Origin: Eledone cirrhosa
Lineage: Eukaryota
Assembly (NCBI GenBank): GCA_964016885.1
Contig: OZ024759.1
Location: 23,002,001 to 23,066,000 of the forward strand
Direction: 5' to 3'
Length of the DNA stretch: 64,000 bases
In this document: positions 4,041-64,000 of the stretch, in pieces
Position numbering within the stretch: the stretch's first letter is position 1
Layout of the letters: each line of letters starts with the position of its first letter
Notes under the pieces: generated by a model
What the model saw: only the letters and a program-made list of their open reading frames with translations
The model's database searches: none
Told to the model about the DNA's origin: nothing
Program-made: the position numbers and the translations under genes

Positions 4041-4794
4041 ACGATAATAATAACAACAAAACCTCTAGGTGCCTATATTTCAATGTAATGAATTCTATCT
4101 ATACATTAGCATTACAAACACATTCATGTAAATTTAATGTGATGGTTTCACACCACTTATATGACTTATAAATGAACTATTTCTCTATAACACAAGAATT
4201 GCTGCCAAGTTTCTTGACAATCCGCAAAAACCTTGCTTTCTTTCTTTGCCTTCACTTAAACTTTTCAACAGAGGTCGATGCCCAGATTTGAGAGGTTTTT
4301 AAAACAGAGCTGTCGACACCATTACGTGACGTTTTTCCCTATTTTACAAAAACTAGTGGTCAAATAATTTTTGCCCAATTTGACCACAAAGTGATGAAGT
4401 GTGAAGATTATTGGAGCTCTGAAATGGCATTATCAACACTACATTTGGCATAACTCCAGCAGATACTAAAACGTCTATCATTTGCAATTTTCTCCATTCG
4501 GTAAAAGCTTTTTCCTTTTGCTATATTAGATAAATGAGCTTCACTTTCCTGGTAAGATTCTTGCAGCCAATTTCAAGTCAAACATTACAGTACTGTGTGC
4601 AGTTCATTCTCTTCAATATCGATCTGTACTTTCACTTTACAAGAACTCACTGTTACATAATAATTGAGGAAATGGAATTTTATTGACATCCAAGTATTAG
4701 CCTAAAGAAATATTGGTGAAAGTTATTTTACTAAATCCCTCCAAATTCATGATTAAAAAAAAAAAATTCATTAGAAATACGTTAACGAACTGGT

Positions 4795-6139
4795 TAACCC
4801 TTTTGTTATCGCATTTCTAATGAAATACACCCTATAGGAATTAATTAATGAAGAATTTGAAAGAAATTACAAAGATTATTAATTATTTCACTATTAAGAT
4901 GGTATGAAGCGATGAATTAGTAGATTTGCTACAACGTCGGACAACATATATTGAAGCATATAGTTACATCCCTTTATGTTCTGAGTTTAGATTCTGCTGA
5001 GATTAGCTTTGCCCTTCATCCTTACAAAGGCGATAAAATAAGATAGCAGTTAAGTAGTGGGGTCGATTTAATGAACTTTCTCCTCTCTTCAAAATTGTTG
5101 GGTTTATGCCTAAATCAGACACCATTATTCAGATGGTATTAAGCATTGGATTGGCAGAATCGGTGGAGTGTCAGGCAACATGTTTTACGGCATATAGTTA
5201 AAGCCCTTTATGTTCTGAGATCAGATCCTGCTGATGTTAGCTTTGCCTTTCATCATTAAATTAAAATACCAGTCATGCATTGGGGTCAATTTAGTCGACT
5301 TTTACCATTTCCTTCAAATTGCTGGCCTTGTGCCAAATATGGAAACAGTTATTAAGGTGATATCAAGGCAGTGGATTGGCAGAAGTGGTGGAGGATTGGA
5401 CAAAATGCCTTCTGGTATTTGTTTCAGTTCTTTATGTTCTGAGTTCAAATCCCACCAAGTTAGCTTTTCCTTTCCTCCTTCCTGAGGTCAATAAAATTAA
5501 ATACCAGTTAAGTACTGGGTAGATATAATCAACTTTCCCTGTCCCCAAATTGTTGGCCTCATGCTAATGTGAAAAAGAATTATTAAGATGGTATTTGTAA
5601 CACAACTTAGCCGAAGTAGTATTATGTTAGAAGGTTTCAATTTATGGAATACAAGTGACCAAAAAGGGGGTTCCCCCAAAGGGTCTCCTTTGAGTAATGT
5701 TACTCGATAGAGTACGTAGCTTAGAGATCAGAGAGTCACTCCAACTAGAGCTGCTACTTTCCTGAATTTCTATATTGAGAGATCATATCTCCAATATTAT
5801 GGGTATGTGATTAGAATATTTTAGGAAAGAATCGCTGGACAGATTTACAGGGAAAACAAGCTGTCAGGAGACCCGGGGGTAGACCCCAAGCAAGATGGTT
5901 GGATAACATCCATGAGCTCAGGTGGTCTCGCTTAGAGATCCAGTGTAATGAATTAGAGATGGATGCTTCTGACAGGACCCAATGGAAGGAGTGTTTGCGG
6001 ACTCTGCTCCCAGGACCCTATCAGGAATAAATGGGCAAAGAAGAAGATATTAAATTAAATAGAATCCCTTTAAAAATGTATGGTTCTGTTTCATAGAACC
6101 AGATGTGGTTTTGGGTGGGTTGGTATCAAAAAGGGTTAA
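4795..6139. mobile_element. TTAA-ended MITE expanded by three SINE-A copies and an RTE fragment
   Basis: Termini TTAACCCTTTTG / CAAAAAGGGTTAA; an empty ~240-bp version lies at 23537-23780. Confidence 0.65.
5790..6048 (+). mobile_element. RTE-type LINE 3' end, decayed
   Basis: Translates to LQYYGYVIR...RRPGGRPQARWLDNI...DRTQW; related pieces at 11545-11885 and 54150-54410. Confidence 0.7.
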
Positions 6140-8209: not shown

Positions 8210-8690
8210 ACAACAAAACAGCCACAACAAACAAAATATCACTTAATACAACAACAACTACAACAACAGCCACAAAAAACAAAATATCACTTAATACAAC
8301 AACAGCCACAAAAAACAAAATATCACTTAATACAACAACAACAACAGTAGTAACAACAAAATCGTTTAATAAAACATTACACAACAACAACAGCCACAAC
8401 AACAACATTTAATATAACAACAGCAACAACAGCAGTACAACAACAACAACAACAGTACAACAACAACCACAACAGCAACAACAACAGCAACACCAGCAAC
8501 ATCGGTACAGCAATAACAACAACAACAACCACAACAGCAACAACCAACAGCAACATCGGTACAGCAATAACAACAACAACAGTACAGCAGCAACAACAGT
8601 ACAGCAGCAACAACAACAGCAGCAGCAACAAGAGTACGACAGCAACAACAACAGTACAACAACAACAACACCACCATTTAATATAACAGT
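8210..8690. repeat. (AAC/CAG)n microsatellite with repeated AACAAAATATCACTTAATAC units
   Basis: Direct inspection. Confidence 0.85.
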
Positions 8691-8869
8691 AGAGAAAAAC
8701 AAGAGCATTGTATTTCCTTTGTCTCATTCTAAATTGAAGTTGATATTTGTGGTTTGAAAATATTCTTCACTGATTTTCTAATTATTTCTGTCCATATATT
8801 TTAATAGGATTTCATGGTGGCTCTTATTTTTGTTGTTTCCTTATTTGTTTATTGTGTTTTCTCATTTAC

Positions 8870-9562
8870 AATGGTTGTTGTGGTTTTTGTTGCTGCTGTT
8901 GTGACCAGTGTTGTTGCTGTGGCCTGTGTTGTTGCTGTTGTTGTTGTTGTGGCCTGTGTTGTTGTGGTCGGTTGTTGTGGTGGTCTATTGTTGTTGTTGT
9001 TGTTGTCTGTTGTTGTTGTTGTTGTCTGTTGTTGTTGAGGTCTGTTGTTGTTGAGGTCTGTTGTTGTTGAGGTCTGTTGTTGTTGAGGTCTGTTGTTGTT
9101 GAGGTCTGTTGTTGTTGAGGTCTGTTGTTGTTGAGGTCTGTTGTTGTTGAGGTCTGTTGTTGTTGAGGTCTGTTGTTGTTGAGGTCTGTTGTTGTTGAGG
9201 TCTGTTGTTGTTGAGGTCTGTTGTTGTTGAGGTCTGTTGTTGTTGAGGTCTGTTGTTGTTGTGGTCTGTTGTGGTCTGTTGTTTTATTGATATTGTCATT
9301 GCTTTGGTACCTGTGACTGTTGTGGTCTCTGTTGTTGTTGTTGTTGTGGTCTGTTGTTTTATTGATATTGTCATTGCTTTGGTGCCTGTGACTGTTGTGG
9401 TCTGTTGTTTTTGTTGTTGTGGTCTGTTGTTTTATTGATATTGTCATTGCTTTGGTACCTGTGACTGTTGTGGTCTGTTGTTTTTGTTGTTGTGGTCTGT
9501 TGTTTTATTGATATTGTCATTGCTTTGGTGCCTGTGGCTGTTGTGGTCTCTGTTGTTGTTGT
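8870..9562. repeat. (GTT)n-derived minisatellite: ~14 copies of 16-bp GTCTGTTGTTGTTGAG, then four ~75-bp units
   Basis: Direct inspection; the poly-Q/T ORFs arise from this array. Confidence 0.9.
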
Positions 9563-9992
9563 TTCCTTGATGTTATAGTTATTGTTCATGTCTCTTCTGT
9601 TATTGTATTTTCCATTTTATTTCTTTATTCCCTCTTATAGTGATGATTATTCTTCCTGGAAGGTAGTTTTTCTTTCCTCCATTTATATTTGTTTGCCCTT
9701 CTTTATTTCTTTATTTATTTTCTTATTCTATTTCTGCTGCCGACTGCTTCCTTCCATTCTTCTTCTTCTTTTCCCTGTAAAACTATGTTTTTACCACTTC
9801 TAATGATTTTTTTTTTGTTTTTCCAATTCTTCAACTCCTATGTTCAGTTTTTGGTTTTCATTAATTTATATATAAATATATAAATGTATATATAAATATA
9901 TAAAAGTATATATATATATAAATATATAAATTAAATTAATAAAAACAATGAAATAAAAACAAAGAACAAGTTCCTTATATTAAAAAATTCAT

Positions 9993-13124: not shown

Positions 13125-13189
<65 letters not shown>

Positions 13190-13227
13190 CAAATATTAAT
13201 AAAATAGATGTTCTTGTGATCAATTAA

Positions 13228-13293
13228 ATTTTATTATACATATTTCAGAGGTACTTGAATCAAGTTCAATAGTACGTCCTCATCAGATAAAAT
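13228..13293 (-). ncRNA. Type I hammerhead ribozyme motif (family A)
   Basis: ATTTTAT-CTGATGA-GGACGTACT...AGTACCTCT-GAAA-TATGTA-TA-ATAAAAT; all three stems pair. Confidence 0.75.
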
Positions 13294-13401
13294 AAAATGA
13301 TACATGACATACCCTGACATGTTAAATGGTTAAGATTTAATCAAGGTAGTATTAAGATTTAATCAAGGTAGTTTAACTCTTTAAAAAAAAAAAATTTTTT
13401 T

Positions 13402-13441
<40 letters not shown>

Positions 13442-13442
13442 C

Positions 13443-13645
13443 GGTTACACAACAGTTAGTTCACCATACCGAGAACAATTGTTTCACCTTAGCGGATCCT
13501 CAGGATTACGAGCTGAGGATCCACTAAGGTGAAACAATTGTTCTCGGTATGGTGAACTAACTGTTGTGTAACCACTTCTACCTAACTCGTCCCATGGACT
13601 GAGTGCTCTACCACTATGGATATTACCTTCCAGTGTTCTACCACT
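13443..13645 (+). mobile_element. HHR-bearing pLTR-like element, family B, with inverted partial copy, in (TA)n
   Basis: 61-bp arms 13443-13503/13513-13573 with 1 mismatch, plus a ~70-bp unpaired tail. Confidence 0.75.
13509..13546 (+). ncRNA. Minimal type I hammerhead ribozyme motif (family B)
   Basis: CGAG-CTGAGGA-TCCACTAAGGT-GAAA-CAATTG-TT-CTCG; stem III palindrome ACAATTGT. Confidence 0.65.
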
Positions 13646-18400: not shown

Positions 18401-18540
18401 GATGATGATGATGATATATATGTATATATCATCATAATAATAAATGGAAAGAACAAAATCCACAGAGAAATCAATGATAAGGGATGGACATATATATACA
18501 TATAGTATATATAACCCCATAGAGCAAATATTTATTATTA

Positions 18541-18672
18541 ACCTGGATTGAAAGTTTAAGCAAACAATTTCTGCTTTCACCCTGAAGCTTCTGAAAGTTC
18601 TTCTGAAAGATTCAGAAGAACTTGCTTTAGGGTGAAAGCAGAAATTGTTTGCTTAAACTTTTAATGTAGGCT
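18541..18672. repeat. Inverted repeat, family C element (related to 17665-17735)
   Basis: AAAGTTTAAGCAAACAATTTCTGCTTTCACCCT pairs with AGGGTGAAAGCAGAAATTGTTTGCTTAAACTTT. Confidence 0.8.
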
Positions 18673-19231
18673 AATTATATATATATAAAAAAAAAAAAAC
18701 ACACAGTCCACGCTGTAATGTGGCCGTGTAGGTAACATGGTAAAAGCCACACTATAAACATGGTTGGTGTTATGAGCGAGACATGGTCACCCAACCATTC
18801 TTGCCTCAAGTAGGACAACTCCCGTCTAAACCCATGCTAGTGTGGAAGATAGACATTAAATGATGATGATAGTACATTATATATATACATTTATATAGTT
18901 ATATATATGAACGAGTAAGACCCCGACGGCTGAGCTCAAGCCGTTTCGACGGCTAATTCTGGAGTCCAGCTATTGCCTTTCCCTTGAACATCAGTGGCGT
19001 GGAGGGGTGAGGCTGGTATGCATGAGCGATTGTTGGTTTTCCACAAAAAACACCTAGCCCAGATTTGTGCCTCGGAGGAGTACTTTGTAGGCAAATCCCA
19101 TGTTCATTGGTGACCGAAGGGGAGTCTTTACCCTATATAGTACATATATATATCATTTTTCAATCACCACCTTCAGTGGGCTTACACCATTAAGATAACA
19201 TGAAGGTATGTCACTATCTTAACACGAAATA

Positions 19232-19292
19232 TATTTTATCTGACGAAAGCGTACTTAACTGTTAGTACCCTTGAAATACGTATAATAAAATA
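19232..19292 (+). ncRNA. Type I hammerhead ribozyme motif (family A)
   Basis: TATTTTAT-CTGACGA-AAGCGTACT...AGTACCCTT-GAAA-TACGTA-TA-ATAAAATA; predicted cut after 19284. Confidence 0.8.
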
Positions 19293-19341
19293 AATATGGT
19301 TTTGTAAAGATATTTTCCATTTATTAATATTGTTAATATTA

Positions 19342-19406
<65 letters not shown>

Positions 19407-19624
19407 GGAGGTGAGTTTTATTGTAGCACAATAAAGTAATGCAAATATCGGATAAGTAGCACTCAACAGTTTATTCTTTTTTTCCTTTCTTCCTCTTCCT
19501 TACTTTTTTCCCCTTCCTTTCCTTTTTTTCCAATCTCCTATATCCTTTTAAATTTATTTTTCATATGTTGATTAGACACGACCTTGCTGACAAGTGTTTT
19601 TTTAAGCTTCATATCATGTCTCCC

Positions 19625-19695
19625 TATTTTATCTGATGAGAACGCAAATATCGTCCCAGGATGATATTTGTTTTTGAAATGCGCATAATAAAATA
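19625..19695 (+). ncRNA. Type I hammerhead ribozyme motif (family A)
   Basis: TATTTTAT-CTGATGA-GAACGCAAATATCGTCC-CA-GGATGATATTTGTTTTT-GAAA-TGCGCA-TA-ATAAAATA; predicted cut after 19687. Confidence 0.8.
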
Positions 19696-19728
19696 CATGG
19701 AACTTTTTTAACCATCTTTTAATTTCTT

Positions 19729-19765
<37 letters not shown>

Positions 19766-25823: not shown

Positions 25824-25870
25824 TATAAACATATTCATATAATTAAACATACAATATATATATAGATAGA

Positions 25871-26055
25871 TAAATGTAATCTGAGTCTTTCGAATATCAA
25901 TAATATTCGATTCGTTTGCTATTAAACAAACAGCCTCTTTCAAGCCATGCCAACGCAAGAGCGGGGCTCATCCTAGTGACATGGCTTAAAAGAGGCTGTT
26001 TGCATAATTACAAACGAATTGAATATTATTATTAATATTCAAAAGATTACATTTA
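25871..26055. repeat. Imperfect inverted repeat with ~75-bp arms
   Basis: CAAACAGCCTCTTTCAAGCCATG / CATGGCTTAAAAGAGGCTGTTTG, extending to AAATGTAATCT / AGATTACATTT. Confidence 0.75.
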
Positions 26056-27040
26056 TTGTATTCAGCCATGTAGAGCAATAATTTTTTGATAGATAGATAC
26101 ATATCACAGATATATATGTAAATAAACATACAATATATATATACATACACACATATGTATATGTATGCTGTGTGTGTGTGCATGCGCGCACACAGTAAGA
26201 TTTAATTCTTATTTTATATTCCTCAGGGATTTTAATATTTACTTAATACTTGCACATACTTAAATACATTCTATTTTATTGTAAGATATTTATTGAATGT
26301 ATATAACAAAAATAAAATATTACATTAATGTCGATTAAATTGATAAATCGGAGCACATTCCTTTTAATGTTGGTTTTATTAGACTTTTTAGCATACAAAT
26401 AATGGCGATAAGATTATATATTACTTTTAAATATTATTATAAAATACTTATAGCCCCCTGGCCTAGTTATTTATTTTCTAACCTTTAATAATATCTGATT
26501 TTTCATTTCATACAAAATTAAATATCCTTGTTTTTAATAATGATGTAAATTTCATAAGCAATTAAATAAATATCTTAGCTTTTAAAAGTGGTGCAATTTT
26601 ATTATTATTATTATATTTCTACTTAGCACTATTTGTTTCAGTTAAATTAAATATTTGTTTGGTTTGGACACTGCATCCTTCAAAACTTCCATGCTTCCCA
26701 ACACTACACATTTGCGCAACATTAATTTCAAAAGTATATTCGCTGACTTTTCTACTTAACTGTACTCAAACATATGTATTATGTTCTGTGCATGTGTAAC
26801 TGAATTGATTTTATAGTAAAATATAAAACAAAAATAAATTTGCTCTTTGTTGACATTATGGGCACAGGTATAGCTGTGAGGTTAACAAGTGTGATTTCAA
26901 TCATGTGGTTTAGGTTTAACTCTTATTTTGTGGAATCCATCAACAAGTGTCTTCCAATGTAACCTTGTGTGCCTTGTATGTGTTGACCAATGTCTTGTAA
27001 GGGAATTTAGTATATGGAAACTCTGTTAAAGCCTATCGTA

Positions 27041-27289: not shown

Positions 27290-27810
27290 AGAGCTAATTA
27301 GGGAAAAGAATAAATCCAGATGAGATGCATGGTTTAATGCCAGGGAGGATCACTATTGATGCCCTCTGCTTAGTGAGACAACTGCAAGACAAGTTCCTAG
27401 CTAAGTATAAAACCCTATATGTAGCTTTCATAGATCTTGAGAAGGCCTTTGACATTATACTCCACTCTAAGGAAAGGAAACTAGGCAGAGAATAATGGCT
27501 TTGTAAATGGTTTGCATTGCACAGAGTTTAGTATGGAATTCAATATACAGATTGTTGTTCATCAGCGCTTAGTCTTCAGCCTACACTTGTTTATTATAGT
27601 TCTCCAGACAATTATGGAGAAATTTAAGACAGACTGTCCATATACCAACGAACTGGTTTGTATAACTGATCTTGAGAAGAAATTTTGGCTTTTGATAGAG
27701 AACTTAGAATCAAAAGGGCTGAGAGTAAAGTAGACAGGAGACTGATCCCTTCAGGGAAGTGGCCTTGCTCAATATGTAGAAAAGGAAAAGGTAAAAATTC
27801 TGTACAATTT
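27290..27810 (+). mobile_element. RTE-clade reverse transcriptase fragment, decayed
   Basis: GLMPGRITIDALCLVRQLQDKFL...YVAFIDLEKAFD; later VHQ...LFIIVLQ, LESKGLRV, GKWPCSICRKG. Confidence 0.8.
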
Positions 27811-28006
27811 TCGGCAATGAATTGCTGTTAATAAAAGATGTTTCCAGTCAAATTTTCCTTAGAGTAATAATTATATATACATATAGACCTACTGTCCATA
27901 TATATATATATATATGTATGTAAAAAGTAAACAGAAATAACAACACAATCGGTACAGTATATGGAAGGTATATATTATGTTAACGCTTGATATAGCAGGA
28001 AGAGGG

Positions 28007-28042
28007 TCTTAACGTTTCGGACGCTAGTCTTTCATCAGAAGA
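28007..28042 (-). ncRNA. Minimal hammerhead motif with loop-less palindromic stem III
   Basis: TCTT-CTGATGA-AAGACTAGCGTCC-GAAA-CG-TT-AAGA. Confidence 0.6.
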
Positions 28043-28431
28043 AAGAATGAGAAATAAAATAGATTGAGGAGACGGGCGGGATGGAATTGGAAAAAATGTC
28101 TTTAGATAAAAATAACAGGTCCAGTTATGTTGACATCTCTTGCAAATATATATATATATATGTTTGCAAGGGAGTAACCCTATGAAAGACTTGCTTATAT
28201 GGGAGCAGATTTAAGTCTATCCAATCAATTTTTAAGTCTCTCATAGGGTTAATCCTTGATAATGGATATATATGTATACATATATATATATTAGGTATAG
28301 GATTATCCAAGATGTAGTAATGGTAATTACTACACTGGATATGGTTGACGTACGGTAAGAGGTTACTCTACGAGTTATGGAAGAATTGTTCAAGAAACTT
28401 AGTTCCTGATCCTTCAGTATTCCGGAGTGTA

Positions 28432-28642
28432 TATAAAGAATGAATAATAACAGGTAGACATCATAAAAAGGTAATTTATTCCGTGTGCTTACAAGTGTTT
28501 CCACGGTGGTACTGCAGCCTAGTTATGCTACGTGCAAATTCACAAGTACTTGCAGAACTCGAATATCCAATGCTGTGACCACTGTTTCCTCGGAATAAAT
28601 TACCTTTTTATGATGTCTACCTGTTATTATTCATTCTTTATA
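28432..28642. repeat. Inverted repeat with 52-bp perfect arms and a ~107-bp spacer, next to (TA)n
   Basis: 28432-28483 is the reverse complement of 28591-28642. Confidence 0.85.
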
Positions 28643-29866: not shown

Positions 29867-31693
29867 ACACTACTACATTAGTACACACTACACTACACAG
29901 GGACACACTGTGCTACACATTAGTACACACTATACTACACAGTACACACTACACTACACATTAGTACACACTACACAGGGACACACTGTACTACACATTA
30001 GTACCCACTACACTACACATTAGTACACACTACACTACACAGGGAGACACTGTACTACACATAGGGAGACACTGTACTACACAGGGACACACTGTACTAC
30101 ACATTAGTACACACTACACATTATTAGTACTGACTGTACTACACATTAGTACACACTACGCATAGGGAGACACTGTACTACATAGGTACTTACACATCAT
30201 TAGTAGACACTGTACTACACAACTTATAGGTACTTACTATACTATATATTGTACTGCACATTACTACATACAGGTACTTACTATACTATATATTGTACTA
30301 CACATTATTACTACACTACTACACATAGGTACATACTCAGACATACATTATACAATATAGAATTCCTACAATATAGAATTTATACAATATAGAATTCCTA
30401 CACTATAGAATTCCTACACTATAGAATTCCTACACTATAGAATTTATACACTATAGAATTTATACAATATAGAATTTATACAATATAGAATTTATACAAT
30501 ATAGAATTTCTACACTATAGAATTCCTACACTATAGAACTTATATAATATAGAATTTATACAATATAGAATTCCTACACTATAGAATTCCTACACTATAG
30601 AATTTATACACTATAGAACTTATATAATATAGAATTCCTACACTATAGAATTCCTACACTATAGAACTTATACAATATAGAACTTATACAATATAGAATT
30701 CATACAATATAGAATTTATACAATATAGATTTCTAACAATATAGAATTCATACAATATAGAATTCATACAATATAGAATTCATACAATATAGAACTTATA
30801 CAATATAGAACTCATAGAATATAGAATTTATACAATATAGAACTCATACAATATAGAATTTATACAATATAGAATTCATACAATATAGAACTTATACAAT
30901 ATAGAAATTATACAATATAGAATTTATACAATATAGAATTCATACAATATAGAATGTATACAATATAGAATTCATACAATATAGAATTTATACAATATAG
31001 AATTCATACAATATAGAATTCATACAATATAGAACTTATACAATATAGAATTCATACAATATAGAACTTATACAATATAGAATTCATACAATATAGAATT
31101 CATACAATATAGAATTCATACAATATAGAAATTATACAATATAGAATTCATACAATATAGAATTCATACAATATAGAATTCATACACTATAGAATTCATA
31201 CAATATAGAAATTATACAATATAGAATTCATACAATATAGAATTCATACAATATAGAATTCATACAATATAGAATTCATACAATATAGAACTTATACAAT
31301 ATAGAATTCATACAATATAGATATAGAAATTATACAATATAGAATTCATACAATATAGAACTTATACAATATAGAATTCATACAATATAGAACTTATACA
31401 ATATAGAAATTATACAATATAGAATTCATACAATATAGAATTCATACAATATAGAAATTATACAATATAGAATTCATACAATATAGAACTTATACAATAT
31501 AGAAATTATACAATATAGAATTTATACAATATAGAATTCATACAATATAGAATTTATACAATATAGAATTCATACAATATAGAATTTATACAATATAGAA
31601 TTCATACAATATAGAACTTATACAATATAGAATTCATACAATATAGAATTCATACAATATAGAATTCATACAATATAGAAATTATACAATATA
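29867..31693. repeat. ACTAC-type array grading into a 16-bp minisatellite TACAATATAGAATTCA (~80 copies from 30351)
   Basis: Direct inspection; variants AATTCC, AATTTA, AACTTA and AAATTA. Confidence 0.95.
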
Positions 31694-33895: not shown

Positions 33896-33984
33896 CATAC
33901 ATACATACAGACATGACTGTAATTAAATAGAGAAAAAAAAAATATATATATATACATTATATATATATATATATTTTTTTTTTT

Positions 33985-43133: not shown

Positions 43134-43626
43134 TCATCATCATCATCGTTTCATTTCACGTCCACTTTTCCCTGCTTGCAAGGGTGGGACGGGAACCGAT
43201 TCTGGCTTGATTTCTACAGCTGGATGCCCTTCCGAACACGTCCACTTTACAGTGTGGGCTGGTTGTTTTTGTGCCGTGGCACCTCCACGACCACTTTACA
43301 GTATGGGCTGGGTGCTTTTTTGCCGTGGCACCTCCACGACCACTTTACAGTGTGGGCTGGGTGCTTTCTTTTTTTGCCGTGGCACCTCCACGACCACTTT
43401 ACAGTGTGGGCTGGGTGCTTTTTTGCCGTGGCACCTCCACGACCACTTTGCAGTGGAATGATATGGACCCCAGTGCCTATCATCTCATTTCTACAGCTGA
43501 GTAAACTGGAGCAATGTGAAATAAAGTGTCTTGCTCAAGGAAACAACACATCACCCGGTCTGAGAATTGAACTCACAACCTTTCGATTGCAAGGCCAATG
43601 CTCTAACCACTAAGCTATGTGCCTCC

Positions 43627-55149: not shown

Positions 55150-55950
55150 CTGTTTGTGTGTGTGTTTATGTGTGTGTGTCTGTGTCTGAGTGTATGCGTG
55201 TGTGTGTGAGTGCATGTGTGTGTGTGACTGTGTGACTGTGTGTGTGTGTGTGTGTGTGTTACTGTGTGCGTGTGTGTGACTGTGTGTGTGACTGTGAGTC
55301 TGAGTGCATGTGTGTGTATGGTTGACTGTGACTGTGCATGTGCACATATGTGTGACTATGTGTGTGTATGTGTGACTGTGCACACCTGTGTGTATGTGTG
55401 ACTGTGTACGTATGTATGTATGTGTGATTGATGGTGTTCATGAGTGTGTGTGTATGTGTGTGTGTGTGACTATGTACATATGTATGTATGTGTGACTGAT
55501 GGTGTGTGTATGTGTGACTGTACATATGTATGTATGTGTGACTGTGATGGTGTGTGTGTGTATGTGTGTATGTGACTGTACATATGTATGTATGTGTGAC
55601 TGATGGTGTGTGTGTGTATGTGTGTATGTGACTGTGTACATATGTATGTATGTGTGAGTGTGATGGTGTTCATGTGTGTGTATGTGTGACTGCGTACATA
55701 TGTATGTGCGATGGTGTTCATGTGTGTGTGTATGTGCACGTGTGTGAGACTATGTATGTATGTATGTGTGTGTGTGTGACTATGATGGTGTTCATGTGTG
55801 TGTGTGTGCGTGTATGTGCACATGTGTGTACGTGTGTGTGTGTGTGTGTGTGTGTGCACATGTGTGTGACTACGTACATATGTATGTGTGTGTGTGTGTG
55901 CGCACATGTGTGTGACTGAGTACATATGTATGTGTGTGTGACTGTGTGTG
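55150..55950. repeat. Diverged (TG)n with TGTGACTG units
   Basis: Direct inspection. Confidence 0.9.
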
Positions 55951-56199
55951 GTAGGTAAGGGGCAGAGAACTGTGTATTCTCCAGGCATTCCAATAAAGCA
56001 TTTATATATAAGATATCAATGAAAGTATATTTCTTTTGTTATTCAAGTGTTCAGTCATAGTGATGCATCTCCTCCATCTCACTCACAGTAAATGCCTGGC
56101 TACAATTTCTTACTTTATAGCAACCTTAATAATAAGCTATGTATGTGTGTATATTATATATATAAATATATATGTGTATGTTTGAGTATATATACTCAA

Positions 56200-56254
<55 letters not shown>

Positions 56255-56291
56255 ATTAAATAAATGGAAACTATATTTATAAAACCATATC

Positions 56292-56357
56292 TATTTCATT
56301 ATATATATTTCGGGGATATCATATTAACAATATGCTATGCCTTCCTCAGACAAAATA
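56292..56357 (-). ncRNA. Type I hammerhead ribozyme motif (family A), mirror copy
   Basis: Exact reverse complement of 56502-56567. Confidence 0.7.
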
Positions 56358-56501
56358 CAATATAAACAGTTTTATAGATAAATAGATTCGACATACCGTT
56401 ATAACACCGACTTGCATTTGAAGAGGTTATAACCTCTTCAAATGCAAGTCGGTGTTATAACGGTATGTCGAATCTATTTATCTATAAAACTGTTTATATT
56501 G

Positions 56502-56567
56502 TATTTTGTCTGAGGAAGGCATAGCATATTGTTAATATGATATCCCCGAAATATATATAATGAAATA
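56502..56567 (+). ncRNA. Type I hammerhead ribozyme motif (family A)
   Basis: TATTTTGT-CTGAGGA-AGGCATAGCATATT-GTT-AATATGATATCCCC-GAAA-TATATA-TA-ATGAAATA. Confidence 0.7.
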
Positions 56568-56695
56568 GATATGGTTTTATAAATATAGTTTCCATTTATT
56601 TAATATTGTAAATATACTCCAAATATTTGTCGAGTGCTTTTATATCAGTTATAAATATTTACTAGTTGTAACCCAACAATTTTAAATATAACTTT

Positions 56696-56751
<56 letters not shown>

Positions 56752-57463
56752 TCAAACACACACACAGACCTATATATATATAATAGTTTACTCAAACACA
56801 TATATATATATATATATATAATAGTTTATATAGAAAAGGCTTCTATAGGACTAGTACTGTATATATATATAGGAAAAAGTATGACCCCGACGGCAGAGCT
56901 CAAGCCGTTTCGACGGCTATTTCTGGACTATTTCTTTCCTATTACCCACTCTACTACATAAGTATTGAGTACTCTGGTGCGTTATGGTCCATCTGGTTGC
57001 TTACCACAATTCCTTCATTATATATATATATATATAAATATATAATATACAATATATATATAATAATTGTTTCTACTTTAGGCACAAGGCCAACAATTAC
57101 CCAGTGCAATACTGGTACTTTATTTTATCGACCCCGTAAGGATGAAAGGCAATATATATAATAATACAAGGACGAATGGTTACTCCATTACATTTATTGG
57201 TTGGTGACGCGTGTTCCGCTACTGATTAGCTCAATTTTTCCATCTGTATCGATCTAGCCCGACTCTGGAATCAAAAGCTCATTGGACCTCTGTGGGAGTG
57301 ATGGGAAAATGAATATACATGGCATACAACAATGTCTAACGTTCATGTTGGTCAGTTTAAGTTGTTTTGATTGGTGGATTAATTACGAGGAATGTTTTTG
57401 CCTGTAATATAGCTGGGTGGATATATATATATATATATATAAATCAAATGAAAAAGATATATA

Positions 57464-58153
57464 TCATCATTTCATTTTACGTCTGCTTTTCCCTGCTTGC
57501 AAGGGTGGGACTGGAACTGATTCTGGCTTGATTTCTACAGCTGGATGCCCTTCCTAACACCAACCTCATTTACAGTGAGTGTTGGGTGCTTTTTTTCCGT
57601 GGTGCCTTCACGTCCACTTTACAGTGTGGGCTGGGTGGTTTTTTGCCGTGCCACCTCCACGACCACTTTGCAGTGGAATGATAGGGACCCCAGTCCCTAT
57701 CATCTCATTTCTACAGCTGAGTTAACTGGAGCAATGTGAAATAAAGTGTCTTGCTCAAGGAAACAACACATCACCCGGTCCAAGAATTGAACTCACAACC
57801 TTTCGATTGAAAGGCCAATGCTCTAACCACTAAGGCCAATGCTCTAACTACTAAGCCATGTGCTTCCATTATATATATCAGACCGGGTGATGTGTTGTTT
57901 CCTTGAGCAAGACACTTTATTTCACATTGCTCCAGTTTACTCAGCTGTAGAAATGAGATGATAGGGACTGGGGTCCCTGTCATTCCACTGCAAAGTGGTT
58001 GTGGATGTGCCACGGCAAAAAAGCACCCAGCACTCACTGTAAATGAGGTTGGTGTTATGAAGGGCATCCAGCTGTAGAAATCAAGTCAGAATCAGTTCCC
58101 GTCCCACCCTTGCAAGCAGGCAAAAAGCGGACGTAAAATGAAATGATGAAATG
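57464..58153. mobile_element. Head-to-head inverted pair of VNTR-SINEs (minus 57464-57868; plus, 5'-truncated, 57880-58153)
   Basis: Arms are near reverse complements; 21-bp duplication in the tRNA head at ~57812-57853. Confidence 0.85.
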
Positions 58154-58159
58154 ATATAT

Positions 58160-58449
58160 ATATAGAGAGAGAGAGAGAAAGAACCATATATCATAGAGGA
58201 AACAGTATATTGTATATATATTAAATACATATTCCATAGAAGAATATGTACTCATTAGAGAAACCTTATAGAGTTATTTCATAATGATTGATTACACAGA
58301 TTGATTTTGAACTCTACAGAATATGAAATAGCCCTATAAGGTCTCTCTAATGACTCCACCATGAGTACATATTCTTCTATGGTATATGTATTTAGTGTAT
58401 ATACAATATACTGTTTCCTTTACGATATATTGTTCTTTCTCTCTCTATA
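58160..58449. repeat. Imperfect inverted repeat with ~120-bp arms
   Basis: GGAAACAGTATATTGTATATA...CCATAGAAGAATATGTACTCAT / ATGAGTACATATTCTTCTATGG...TATATACAATATACTGTTTCC. Confidence 0.8.
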
Positions 58450-58563
58450 CATATATTTATCTTTTTCATTCGATTTAATATGATTCTGGATAATGTCTAT
58501 TGAGCATGTTTATTGAGAAACACAAAATTCTAACATATTTGATATGTTTTGGTTCATTACATT

Positions 58564-58621
<58 letters not shown>

Positions 58622-58755
58622 TAGAAGTAGTATTTAATTTGTTGGAAGTTCGACAAACATAAATGTTTATAACTGATTTAGAGAACTCAACAAAGTACTG
58701 GAGTAAATATTCAATGATATTAAATAAATGGAAACTATATTTATAAAACCATATT

Positions 58756-58820
58756 TATTTTATTATATATATTTCAAGGCTAATCAAGACAACGTTGGTA
58801 CGCTTTCATCAGGTAAAATA
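58756..58820 (-). ncRNA. Type I hammerhead ribozyme motif (family A), within element ~58620-58835
   Basis: TATTTTAC-CTGATGA-AAGCGTACCAA...TTGATTAGCCTT-GAAA-TATATA-TA-ATAAAATA; downstream sequence matches 56568-56698. Confidence 0.7.
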
Positions 58821-59971
58821 AAGTTTTATAAATTTTTTTTTTTTTGCATTGCCAATAAATTTAACAAAAAAGGGGTCACTCTTTTCCTTAAATCAGTTAT
58901 CTGAAAAAACATGTTTACCATATGAATTACGATAAAAATATAAAAGAGATAGATCATCATCATCATTTTATGTCCATTTTTCCACGCTAGCATGCGTTAG
59001 ACGAATTGCCCTGTTGTGGGCAATGCTAGGTCAGTTGACCATGTCTTGCGCATACAGAACTGATAGATATTAATGGTATATAATAAATCTTATGCAGGGG
59101 TTTCCTGAGACATGAAAACTATTTCAAGGATTTTACAATGGTAAAAAAAAAGGTTGAGAAATGCTGTCCTGGAAGACAGTAAGGAAGACATGTTGGAATA
59201 ACCATTACAACTTGAGAAGAGCCAACCTTGACCCAATAATAGAGTGTAAGAAACTGTTTCAGAGGACACAGATTACCTGAGGTCCTTCACCACAGTAGTT
59301 TCAATGATAAATCTATCCAAAAAGTGTCCAATAATACTCCAACAGATTGTCTGTCAGTTAATCTTGTAGTGCTGTTCACTAAATTGCTCTCCTTTGTTTC
59401 TTGAACTTGATCTATCACCTCAAGCAGAGAAGAGAGCAGGGGGGTATGAAAGAGGGTGTGAAGAAGGAGGAGGTGAAGAAGGAGGAGGTGATACACAGAA
59501 AGTGAAAGTGAAATAAAATGTCACTGACTACACTAATTAATTAAAAGCTAATAATCACAATTTTCAATTAGGAAGGTGTATAATTAAGCAATGTCATATC
59601 TGGTTAATTAACCACATCAGTTACGAATTATCACTTTAATTAAGAAAACAAAGAAAAAAGATAGCAGAGATTACATAAAAGGAAAATCAAATCCCAAACG
59701 CACACTGACACGCAACAAACACATACACTATAGCCAATACACACACACACACATACACTATAGCCAATACACACACACACGCACACTATTGCCAGCACAA
59801 ACACATACACATGCTCACACAAAACCCACTCAAGAAAATACAGAAACATATAGACACACATAACTAATGCACACACACACACATGAAAACGTCCAGGCAC
59901 ACATTAGAACTAACATATACACACATACAACTTACAGACAGACACACACAAACAAAGCTATAAAATAAAAC

Positions 59972-63643
<3,672 letters not shown>

Positions 63644-64000
63644 TGAATATAGACATAGAATATTCGAAAATATTCTGTATGTTTATAATAAACATTTTGA
63701 AGACCTAATCGCTATAGAATAGAATACGTCACGTATTACAATTAGATTCTCGATAAAAGCAAGGGAAGTAAATCTACGCGTTTCATTCTTATTAGAAATC
63801 GTCAGGACTACATATCCAGTGCTTTCATCGAGAATGACACAGCTAGAGACTTATAGAATACTTAGCTGTGTACAGGAACTGGTTTGAAAGAGCGGTTGCC
63901 GGTCCGGCAGAAATTAGAAATTGGAATAAATGCTCTGAAATAGCGATATATATGTGAATATAGACATAGAATATTCGAAAATATTCTGTATGTTTATAAT
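63644..64000 (-). mobile_element. 311-bp direct-repeat unit carrying a hammerhead (retrozyme or pLTR-like), continuing past the window
   Basis: TGAATATAGACATAGAATATTCGAAAATATTCTGTATGTTTATAAT is identical at 63644 and 63955. Confidence 0.6.
63746..63835 (-). ncRNA. Type I hammerhead ribozyme with extended stem I (core 63768-63811)
   Basis: GTAGTC-CTGACGA-TTTCTAATAAGAAT-GAAA-CGCG-TA-GATTTAC; outer helix ATTCTCGATGAAAGCA / TGCTTTTATCGAGAAT. Confidence 0.8.

Follow-up and report, generated by a model that had tools for sequence, protein, structure and literature searches.

[quoted passage not shown] The palindrome is real in the assembly and was correctly described in these respects, and we assign it with high confidence to the PLE-type inverted pLTR stumps. 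Taken alone, the locus is of little importance, being probably one more inert stump of a known type. It is valuable as a clean specimen, unmutated, free of any spacer and in possession of both alternative 3' ends, that preserves the junction at which two-ended priming could be distinguished from fold-back.

Architecture, family and parentage of the palindrome

In the assembly sequence, positions 56249–56429 and 56430–56610 are exact reverse complements of 181 bp each, with 0 mismatches and 0 bases of spacer, and the palindrome has an AT content of 74%. The left arm begins with two bases that belong to a TA tract, so that the arm proper measures 179–181 bp. The left arm (56249–56429, minus strand) is a tail-less pLTR-like copy that stops at the short 3' end of its family, and the right arm (56430–56610, plus strand) is a pLTR-like copy that runs on into an 88-nt tail of its own (56611–56698, plus strand) and stops at the family's long 3' end, the same tail end being present in a minus-strand copy at 58620–58850. 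The inverted copy adjoins the 5' end head to head, and the 3' ends of both arms, one the family's long end and the other its short end, point outward. Alignment of 56548–56694 with 58775–58625 on the minus strand gives 125 identical columns out of 154 (81%), so that the homologous part includes the tail as well as the hammerhead's 3' half. The presumed target is represented by (TA)n tracts of 41 nt on its left side (56210–56250) and 45 nt on its right side (56698–56742), within which a target-site duplication is unreadable. The axis is formed by the self-complementary octamer GTTATAAC (56426–56433), where either direction of reading gives a TATAA word. The same octamer is found again 28 nt outward on both arms (56398 and 56454), which suggests, without proving it, that the word belongs naturally to the element. 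When a 450-nt sequence of matching make-up was mononucleotide-shuffled 200 times, the longest arm reached 11 bp (mean 5.2), and within the window, TA-rich rows excluded, the only other perfect palindrome with arms of at least 18 bp is a TA-edge pair of 21–22 bp at 33933–33983.

Four of the five loci of this family in the window are single arms. The tailed relative at 58620–58850 (minus strand, hammerhead core at 58812), found by alignment, shares 171 identities with the right arm against 27 mismatches and 28 gap columns. A tail-less relative at 19150–19345 (plus strand, core at 19240) and a more distant one at 13185–13400 (minus strand, core at 13286) each run into (TA)n near the short end, and another distant copy was recognized by motif and comparison at 19600–19730 (plus strand, core at 19633). 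A (TA)n tract adjoins all four of these relatives as well as the palindrome on both of its sides. The tail is confined to one end, family copies end with or without it, and the single arms finish either at the long end (58620) or at the short end (19345 and 13185). Upstream of the hammerhead, the relatives in the window lose similarity.

Public contigs show the family to be a very abundant repeat. Of 23 public runs listed, 20 contain part of the stretch and 2 contain half or more; contigs from four of the 23 (X1, X3, X4 and X5) matched at 88% likeness, X1 and X3 being one sample and possibly the source. Summed contig depth, which is not copy number and which also declines with divergence, ranges in X1 from ~85,000 to 1.8 million on arm bins outside the centre versus 4.9 on the unique left flank. 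Just past 56602 it falls about fourfold, from 1.79 million to 0.49 million in X1 and from 1.73 to 0.47 million in X3, with a weaker drop at the tail in X4 (26721 to 12742 and 19253), and one X5 contig departs from the reference at 56616 into (TA)n. Together with the ends of the relatives, this drop indicates that long and short 3' ends are both ordinary for the family. Depth also declines toward the axis, reaching 7186 in the centre bin of X1, a gradient that fits 5' truncation and that divergence would equally give. No RNA run is among the matches listed, and exact searches with 36 nt of the arm found 0 loci in metagenome contigs and 0 matches in the supplement of PMC8557442. A conserved, PAc-like stem-loop at the tail end is unsupported, with both-side changes in 0 of 7 pairs per family in two-sequence consensus folds.

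What kind of element would leave such a structure? Published PLE insertions combine an adjacent inverted, 5'-truncated copy with a one-ended tail and microsatellite targets in which the target duplication is unreadable, and the origin of tandem and inverted PLE ends has been termed unresolved (PMC8557442). In PMC3846280, inverted pLTRs of Adineta are shorter than the direct copy, palindromes occur at head-to-head junctions, including palindromes of 18 bp and 38 bp at pLTR 5' ends, and self-priming is proposed. The Eledone palindrome resembles the Pen2, Pen2a and Pen3a elements of Adineta vaga and the PLE scheme of PMC8557442 in its head-to-head inverted pLTR and junction palindrome. It also shares with EN+ PLE inverted-pLTR insertions (PMC3846280, PMC8557442) the shorter inverted copy, the one-ended tail, the AT-rich or (TA)n target and the lack of a readable duplication. 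It departs from these insertions in having no ORF between or beside the arms, in a palindrome that spans the whole 181-bp arm without a spacer and in a tail of 88 nt rather than 30–40. Within the PLEs, the Neptune and Hydra clades likewise combine hammerheads with a microsatellite bias, (TA)n being given for Hydra-1_Amil (PMC8557442); the palindrome offers no protein by which to place its family. Naiads target (TA)n and are without canonical hammerheads. The microsatellites and SINEs of the window would fit a cephalopod genome, where PLEs are plentiful: in one octopus they make up 6.83% in 190 families (PMC13282606 supplement).

The match to published PLE anatomy supports the earlier suggestion of a Penelope-like insertion whose inverted partial pLTR arose at insertion. 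No PLE protein gene was found nearby, and for this reason we infer the parentage from anatomy. The window contains no gene for a PLE reverse transcriptase or GIY-YIG nuclease, and no ORF of at least 90 aa lies within the element. Among 141 frames of at least 55 aa, one matched Pfam, and that was an unrelated reverse transcriptase scrap. An autonomous EN+ Penelope-like element was therefore rejected as a candidate, there being no ORF in the window with a PLE reverse transcriptase and a GIY-YIG endonuclease. The scrap, an RVT_1 match at 27298–27492 (E 7.5e-5, below the cut-off) within a broken reverse transcriptase fragment at 27298–27780, lies 29 kb from the palindrome; it resembles an RTE-type LINE and was rejected as the parent. 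Non-LTR retrozymes (10.64898/2026.07.22.740005) are alike in being non-coding, in carrying a type I hammerhead and in their kinship to PLE pLTRs. Assignment to them was rejected because retrozymes consist of head-to-tail tandem units, in contrast to the single inverted pair seen here with its motifs on opposite strands.

Hammerhead motifs and the predicted transcript

Each strand carries one outward-facing type I hammerhead motif with a CTGAGGA...GAAA core, at 56502–56567 on the plus strand (core at 56510) and at 56292–56357 on the minus strand (core at 56349). In the plus-strand motif, located from the motif pattern and a drawn structure, stem I pairs 56502–56509 with 56560–56567 through 8 bp that include two G.U pairs, the core consists of CUGAGGA (56510–56516) and GAAA (56548–56551) with an AUA triplet, stem II (56517–56547) is long and interrupted, and stem III is the palindromic AUAUAUAU (56551–56558). 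Cleavage would be predicted after 56559 on this strand and, going by the canonical core, between 56300 and 56299 on the other. The CUGANGA, GAAA and UH core elements and helices I and II of the minimal type I hammerhead of PLEs are all present. Over the five copies, 85 of 89 cells are paired and both-side changes occur in 7 of 19 pairs; this level of pairing was equaled in 1 of 500 shuffles, and slid controls pair at 35–60%. These counts refer to a structure that was drawn by hand from the same five copies and leans toward them, five being a small number, and the search motif was likewise derived from them. Stem III is palindromic in four of the five copies, with compensating changes (TATATA, TACGTA and TGCGCA), and such palindromicity is a mark of PLE hammerheads acting as dimers (PMC6765202, PMC4209133).

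The motif resembles the minimal type I hammerheads of PLEs (PMC4209133, PMC6765202) in its topology, conserved core and long helix II, in its short palindromic stem III suited to dimers, and in its occurrence both as dispersed single motifs and as opposite-strand pairs, which in PMC4209133 are spaced 100–700 bp apart. Helix I has 8 bp here versus 4–5 in the Schistosoma families, and the triplet here is AUA. The conserved G10.1-C11.1 pair, which follows a bulged base, can be formed only by the palindrome copy (−2.8 kcal/mol versus −3.0 for the other register); at the base of helix II the four relatives have an in-register A-U or G.U pair. The single-arm fold is predicted to be marginal, with −3.0 kcal/mol for the hammerhead versus −6.2 kcal/mol for the minimum and a stem I probability of 0.001, and when six hammerheads were folded freely in isolation the z-scores lay between 0.80 and −2.17, which are weak alone. 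At gathering scores, Rfam returned no hammerhead in the whole window and only a weak tRNA match at 43560–43617, and for 56430–56700 at E up to 10 it returned one chance match and no hammerhead. The G.U pairs of stem I may be subfamily letters. A reading of them as fixed A-to-I edits was dropped, no A variant occurring there among the contig matches listed. Three family copies carry a 5' splice site-like word, GGTATGTC, upstream of the hammerhead (56452–56462, 19204–19212 and 13308–13320); in Drosophila virilis, PLE introns end at the hammerhead (PMC4209133). Other sequence families contribute minus-strand CUGANGA...GAAA motifs at 28000–28045 and 63770–63810, with cores at 28038 and 63805.

How would such a locus behave if transcribed? 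A transcript entering from either side meets an antisense arm first, and the prediction for the read-through RNA is a single hairpin of 179 bp (−298.8 kcal/mol with the tail) in which the pairing probability of the hammerhead stems is 0. The proposal of a double-stranded RNA that masks its own ribozyme is thus supported at the level of predicted folding, where both hammerhead stems are lost. The masking itself matters little, because the fold is already marginal in the single arm, because the minimal hammerhead of one PLE showed no activity in monomeric form (PMC4209133) and because cleavage was dispensable for insertion in vitro in another PLE, whose hammerhead needed its protein (PMC11167929); ribozyme masking is probably moot. 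Outward transcripts of single arms are equally possible given the TATAA word at the axis, since pLTRs can serve as promoters (PMC3846280, PMC6765202). The copy itself is probably an inert, protein-less stump. If many such copies were transcribed, they would feed double-strand RNA pathways. If rates of 5e-9 to 2e-9 per site per year are assumed, zero differences over 181 bp allow an age of up to ~1.7–4.1 million years, the middle rate of 3.6e-9 being the calibration quoted in PMC13282606, and any arm-to-arm conversion would loosen this bound. The insertion is therefore compatible with youth, while the term "very recent" used for it goes beyond what is an upper bound. At the DNA level, long AT-rich palindromes are prone to cruciform extrusion and instability.

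Proposed two-ended priming and competing origins

A fundamental question is how an insertion acquires two identical arms that meet without a spacer and end at two different 3' ends. In L1 twin priming, the two target strands prime two cDNAs, which meet head to head at microhomology. We judge it slightly more probable than all other origins combined that the palindrome arose by a comparable two-ended priming from both nicked target strands, with the products joined at the GTTATAAC axis. In this model, the element's GIY-YIG nuclease would nick both strands of the (TA)n tract, and reverse transcription would begin at two positions within the pLTR RNA, 88 nt apart, giving one tailed and one tail-less copy. 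This step draws on in vitro work on another PLE, whose PAc protein cuts both target strands and extends each of them, with reverse transcription beginning at two internal sites that bound the tail (PMC11167929). Both cDNAs would then halt in the same self-complementary GTTATAAC, anneal and be filled in, which would leave no spacer; the identity of the arms implies that both came from one template lineage. As a guess, the parent carries a natural GTTATAAC upstream of the axis. The spacers of six other inverted pairs in the window span 3 to 107 nt, so that zero spacer is one end of a range. L1 twin-priming inversions (PMC2837659) are alike in their head-to-head inverted cDNA copies and differ in that their arms copy different parts of the RNA and are poly(A)-ended, whereas the arms of the palindrome copy one segment and its family is not a LINE. 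Our literature search, whose scope left most subscription papers outside, returned no paper joining twin priming with inverted Penelope-like elements.

The preliminary description had attributed the structure to fold-back or template switching. Its view of an inverted pLTR made at the time of insertion stands, and fold-back is one of the two mechanisms that fit. By that route, priming at the right (TA)n would start a single cDNA that copies the tail and the arm; its 3' end would snap back at the axis and copy itself, and the second strand would be cut, or would end 88 nt early, before it is joined to the left flank. Such an event gives identical arms and zero spacer directly, self-priming is the published proposal for PLE junction palindromes such as the 18-bp and 38-bp cases of Adineta (PMC3846280), the tail of PLEs has been ascribed to nuclease resolution of an intermediate (PMC8557442), and the DNA hairpin with a 4-nt loop is predicted at −199 kcal/mol. 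However, fold-back requires a natural self-complementary stretch of sufficient length for an intramolecular stem, and the octamer would yield only 2 pairs around a 4-nt loop. Moreover, single-arm copies reach the short end without any mirror arm, and two start sites of reverse transcription have been demonstrated in vitro (PMC11167929). Though both mechanisms fit and lead to almost identical products, we favor two-ended priming and regard fold-back as a tentative alternative that deserves to be kept in view.

The other explanations for the palindrome fare considerably worse. A mobile non-autonomous unit formed by the palindrome itself, with a hairpin master transcribed and re-inserted whole by PLE proteins, is improbable. 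Two observations are in keeping with such a unit: each of the two palindromes of a second hammerhead family in the window has one arm that stops no more than 2 nt from a common base, namely the C in the CUGA core, and the X1 centre-bin depth of the present family still far exceeds that of the unique flank (7186 versus 4.9). Yet the second-family copies differ in their centre (a 9-nt spacer versus about none) and their arm pairs carry variants of their own, single arms account for four of the five family loci in the window, and a 179-bp RNA hairpin would be a poor template. An assembly or chimeric-read artefact, with only one arm in existence, is very unlikely. Perfect identity is what an artefact would yield, such structures trouble assemblies (PMC8557442), and no contig bridging the centre or a TA junction is found among the matches listed (32 pieces with 41501 more, and 15 joints with 75 more, TA tracts being skipped), a null result that is evidence neither way. 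The argument against it is that the mirror halts at 181 bp, at the natural short end of the family, with a separate flank on each side, whereas a fold-back read would have mirrored the tail and flank too. In addition, aged pairs of the same layout with diverged arms are present in the window, and the left flank at 55940–56137 is matched without difference by a contig of X1, which may be the source sample; contigs of X3, X4 and X5 have no coverage of that flank.

An older inverted insertion might have had its arms homogenized and its spacer lost through hairpin-templated repair or gene conversion. Long inverted repeats do undergo intrastrand correction, and the arms of the pair at 28432–28483 and 28591–28642 are also identical at 52 of 52 bases. 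Between 3 and 15 arm mismatches persist in other pairs of the window, so such correction is not general there, and the repair of palindromes usually adds central asymmetry; we give later homogenization little credence. Least credible of all is a MITE or a fold-back DNA transposon with terminal inverted repeats that meet in the middle. The element is short and non-coding, with inverted arms and TA flanks, and the internal part can be absent in MITEs (PMC8969392). Against this, 88 extra bases at one end break the symmetry of terminal inverted repeats, single arms with either end are common and include all four relatives in the window, the depth gradient is like that of 5' truncation, and the hammerhead is conserved. 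Two-ended priming remains the favored origin, and a broader version of it is put forward as a speculation that we consider doubtful at present: inverted PLE insertions in general may arise by double-ended priming, with a reverse transcriptase dimer, two internal start sites and cDNAs joined at short palindromic words, and this genome, in which 64 kb can hold several such young palindromes of more than one family, would be a natural integration library and a very large source of perfect-hairpin RNA. If that were true, the genome would read out an unsolved step of PLE integration.

Other inverted pairs and repeats of the window

Self-comparison of the window, with the (CAA)n/(TTG)n rows at 8386–9563 and two distant pairs dropped, yielded nine regions for examination besides the palindrome, and the layout recurs among them, so that the palindrome is not unique there. 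A second hammerhead family has two copies (1074–1268 and 13436–13645) lying head to head in (TA)n, each with a short arm and a long arm bearing a tail of ~70 nt. Its motif has CUGAGGA, a short stem II and a palindromic CAAUUG stem III. The two arms of each copy share 4 variants that separate the copies, with none the other way round, and each mirror arm therefore derives from the template lineage of its partner. In both copies one arm breaks off at most 2 nt from the CUGA core's C, which may be a truncation hot spot.

Several further pairs were observed. An inverted repeat at 28432–28642 lies in a TA context with identical arms (52/52) and a 107-nt spacer, and a canonical hammerhead core was not seen in it. 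Short inverted pairs with diverged arms lie beside TA tracts at 18528–18684, 25870–26056, 58136–58476 and 4767–4824 and are possibly older stumps of other families. At 57457–58157, two tRNA-headed SINE-like copies stand head to head with their 3' ends outward (263 identities, 12 mismatches and a 49-nt indel), and a head region and short TA run lie between them; the pair may reflect either two insertions or a PLE-like inverted event. Another abundant repeat, at 56860–57007, shows opposite-strand joints from 56869 to 56959 and from 56883 to 56935 in X1, X3 and X4 contigs, which indicates that other copies have the part 56935–57007 inverted at their left end. The window also holds a 16-bp satellite of 83.6 copies at 30350–31693, and a simple array rich in (TA) extends over a very long stretch at 59970–63700.
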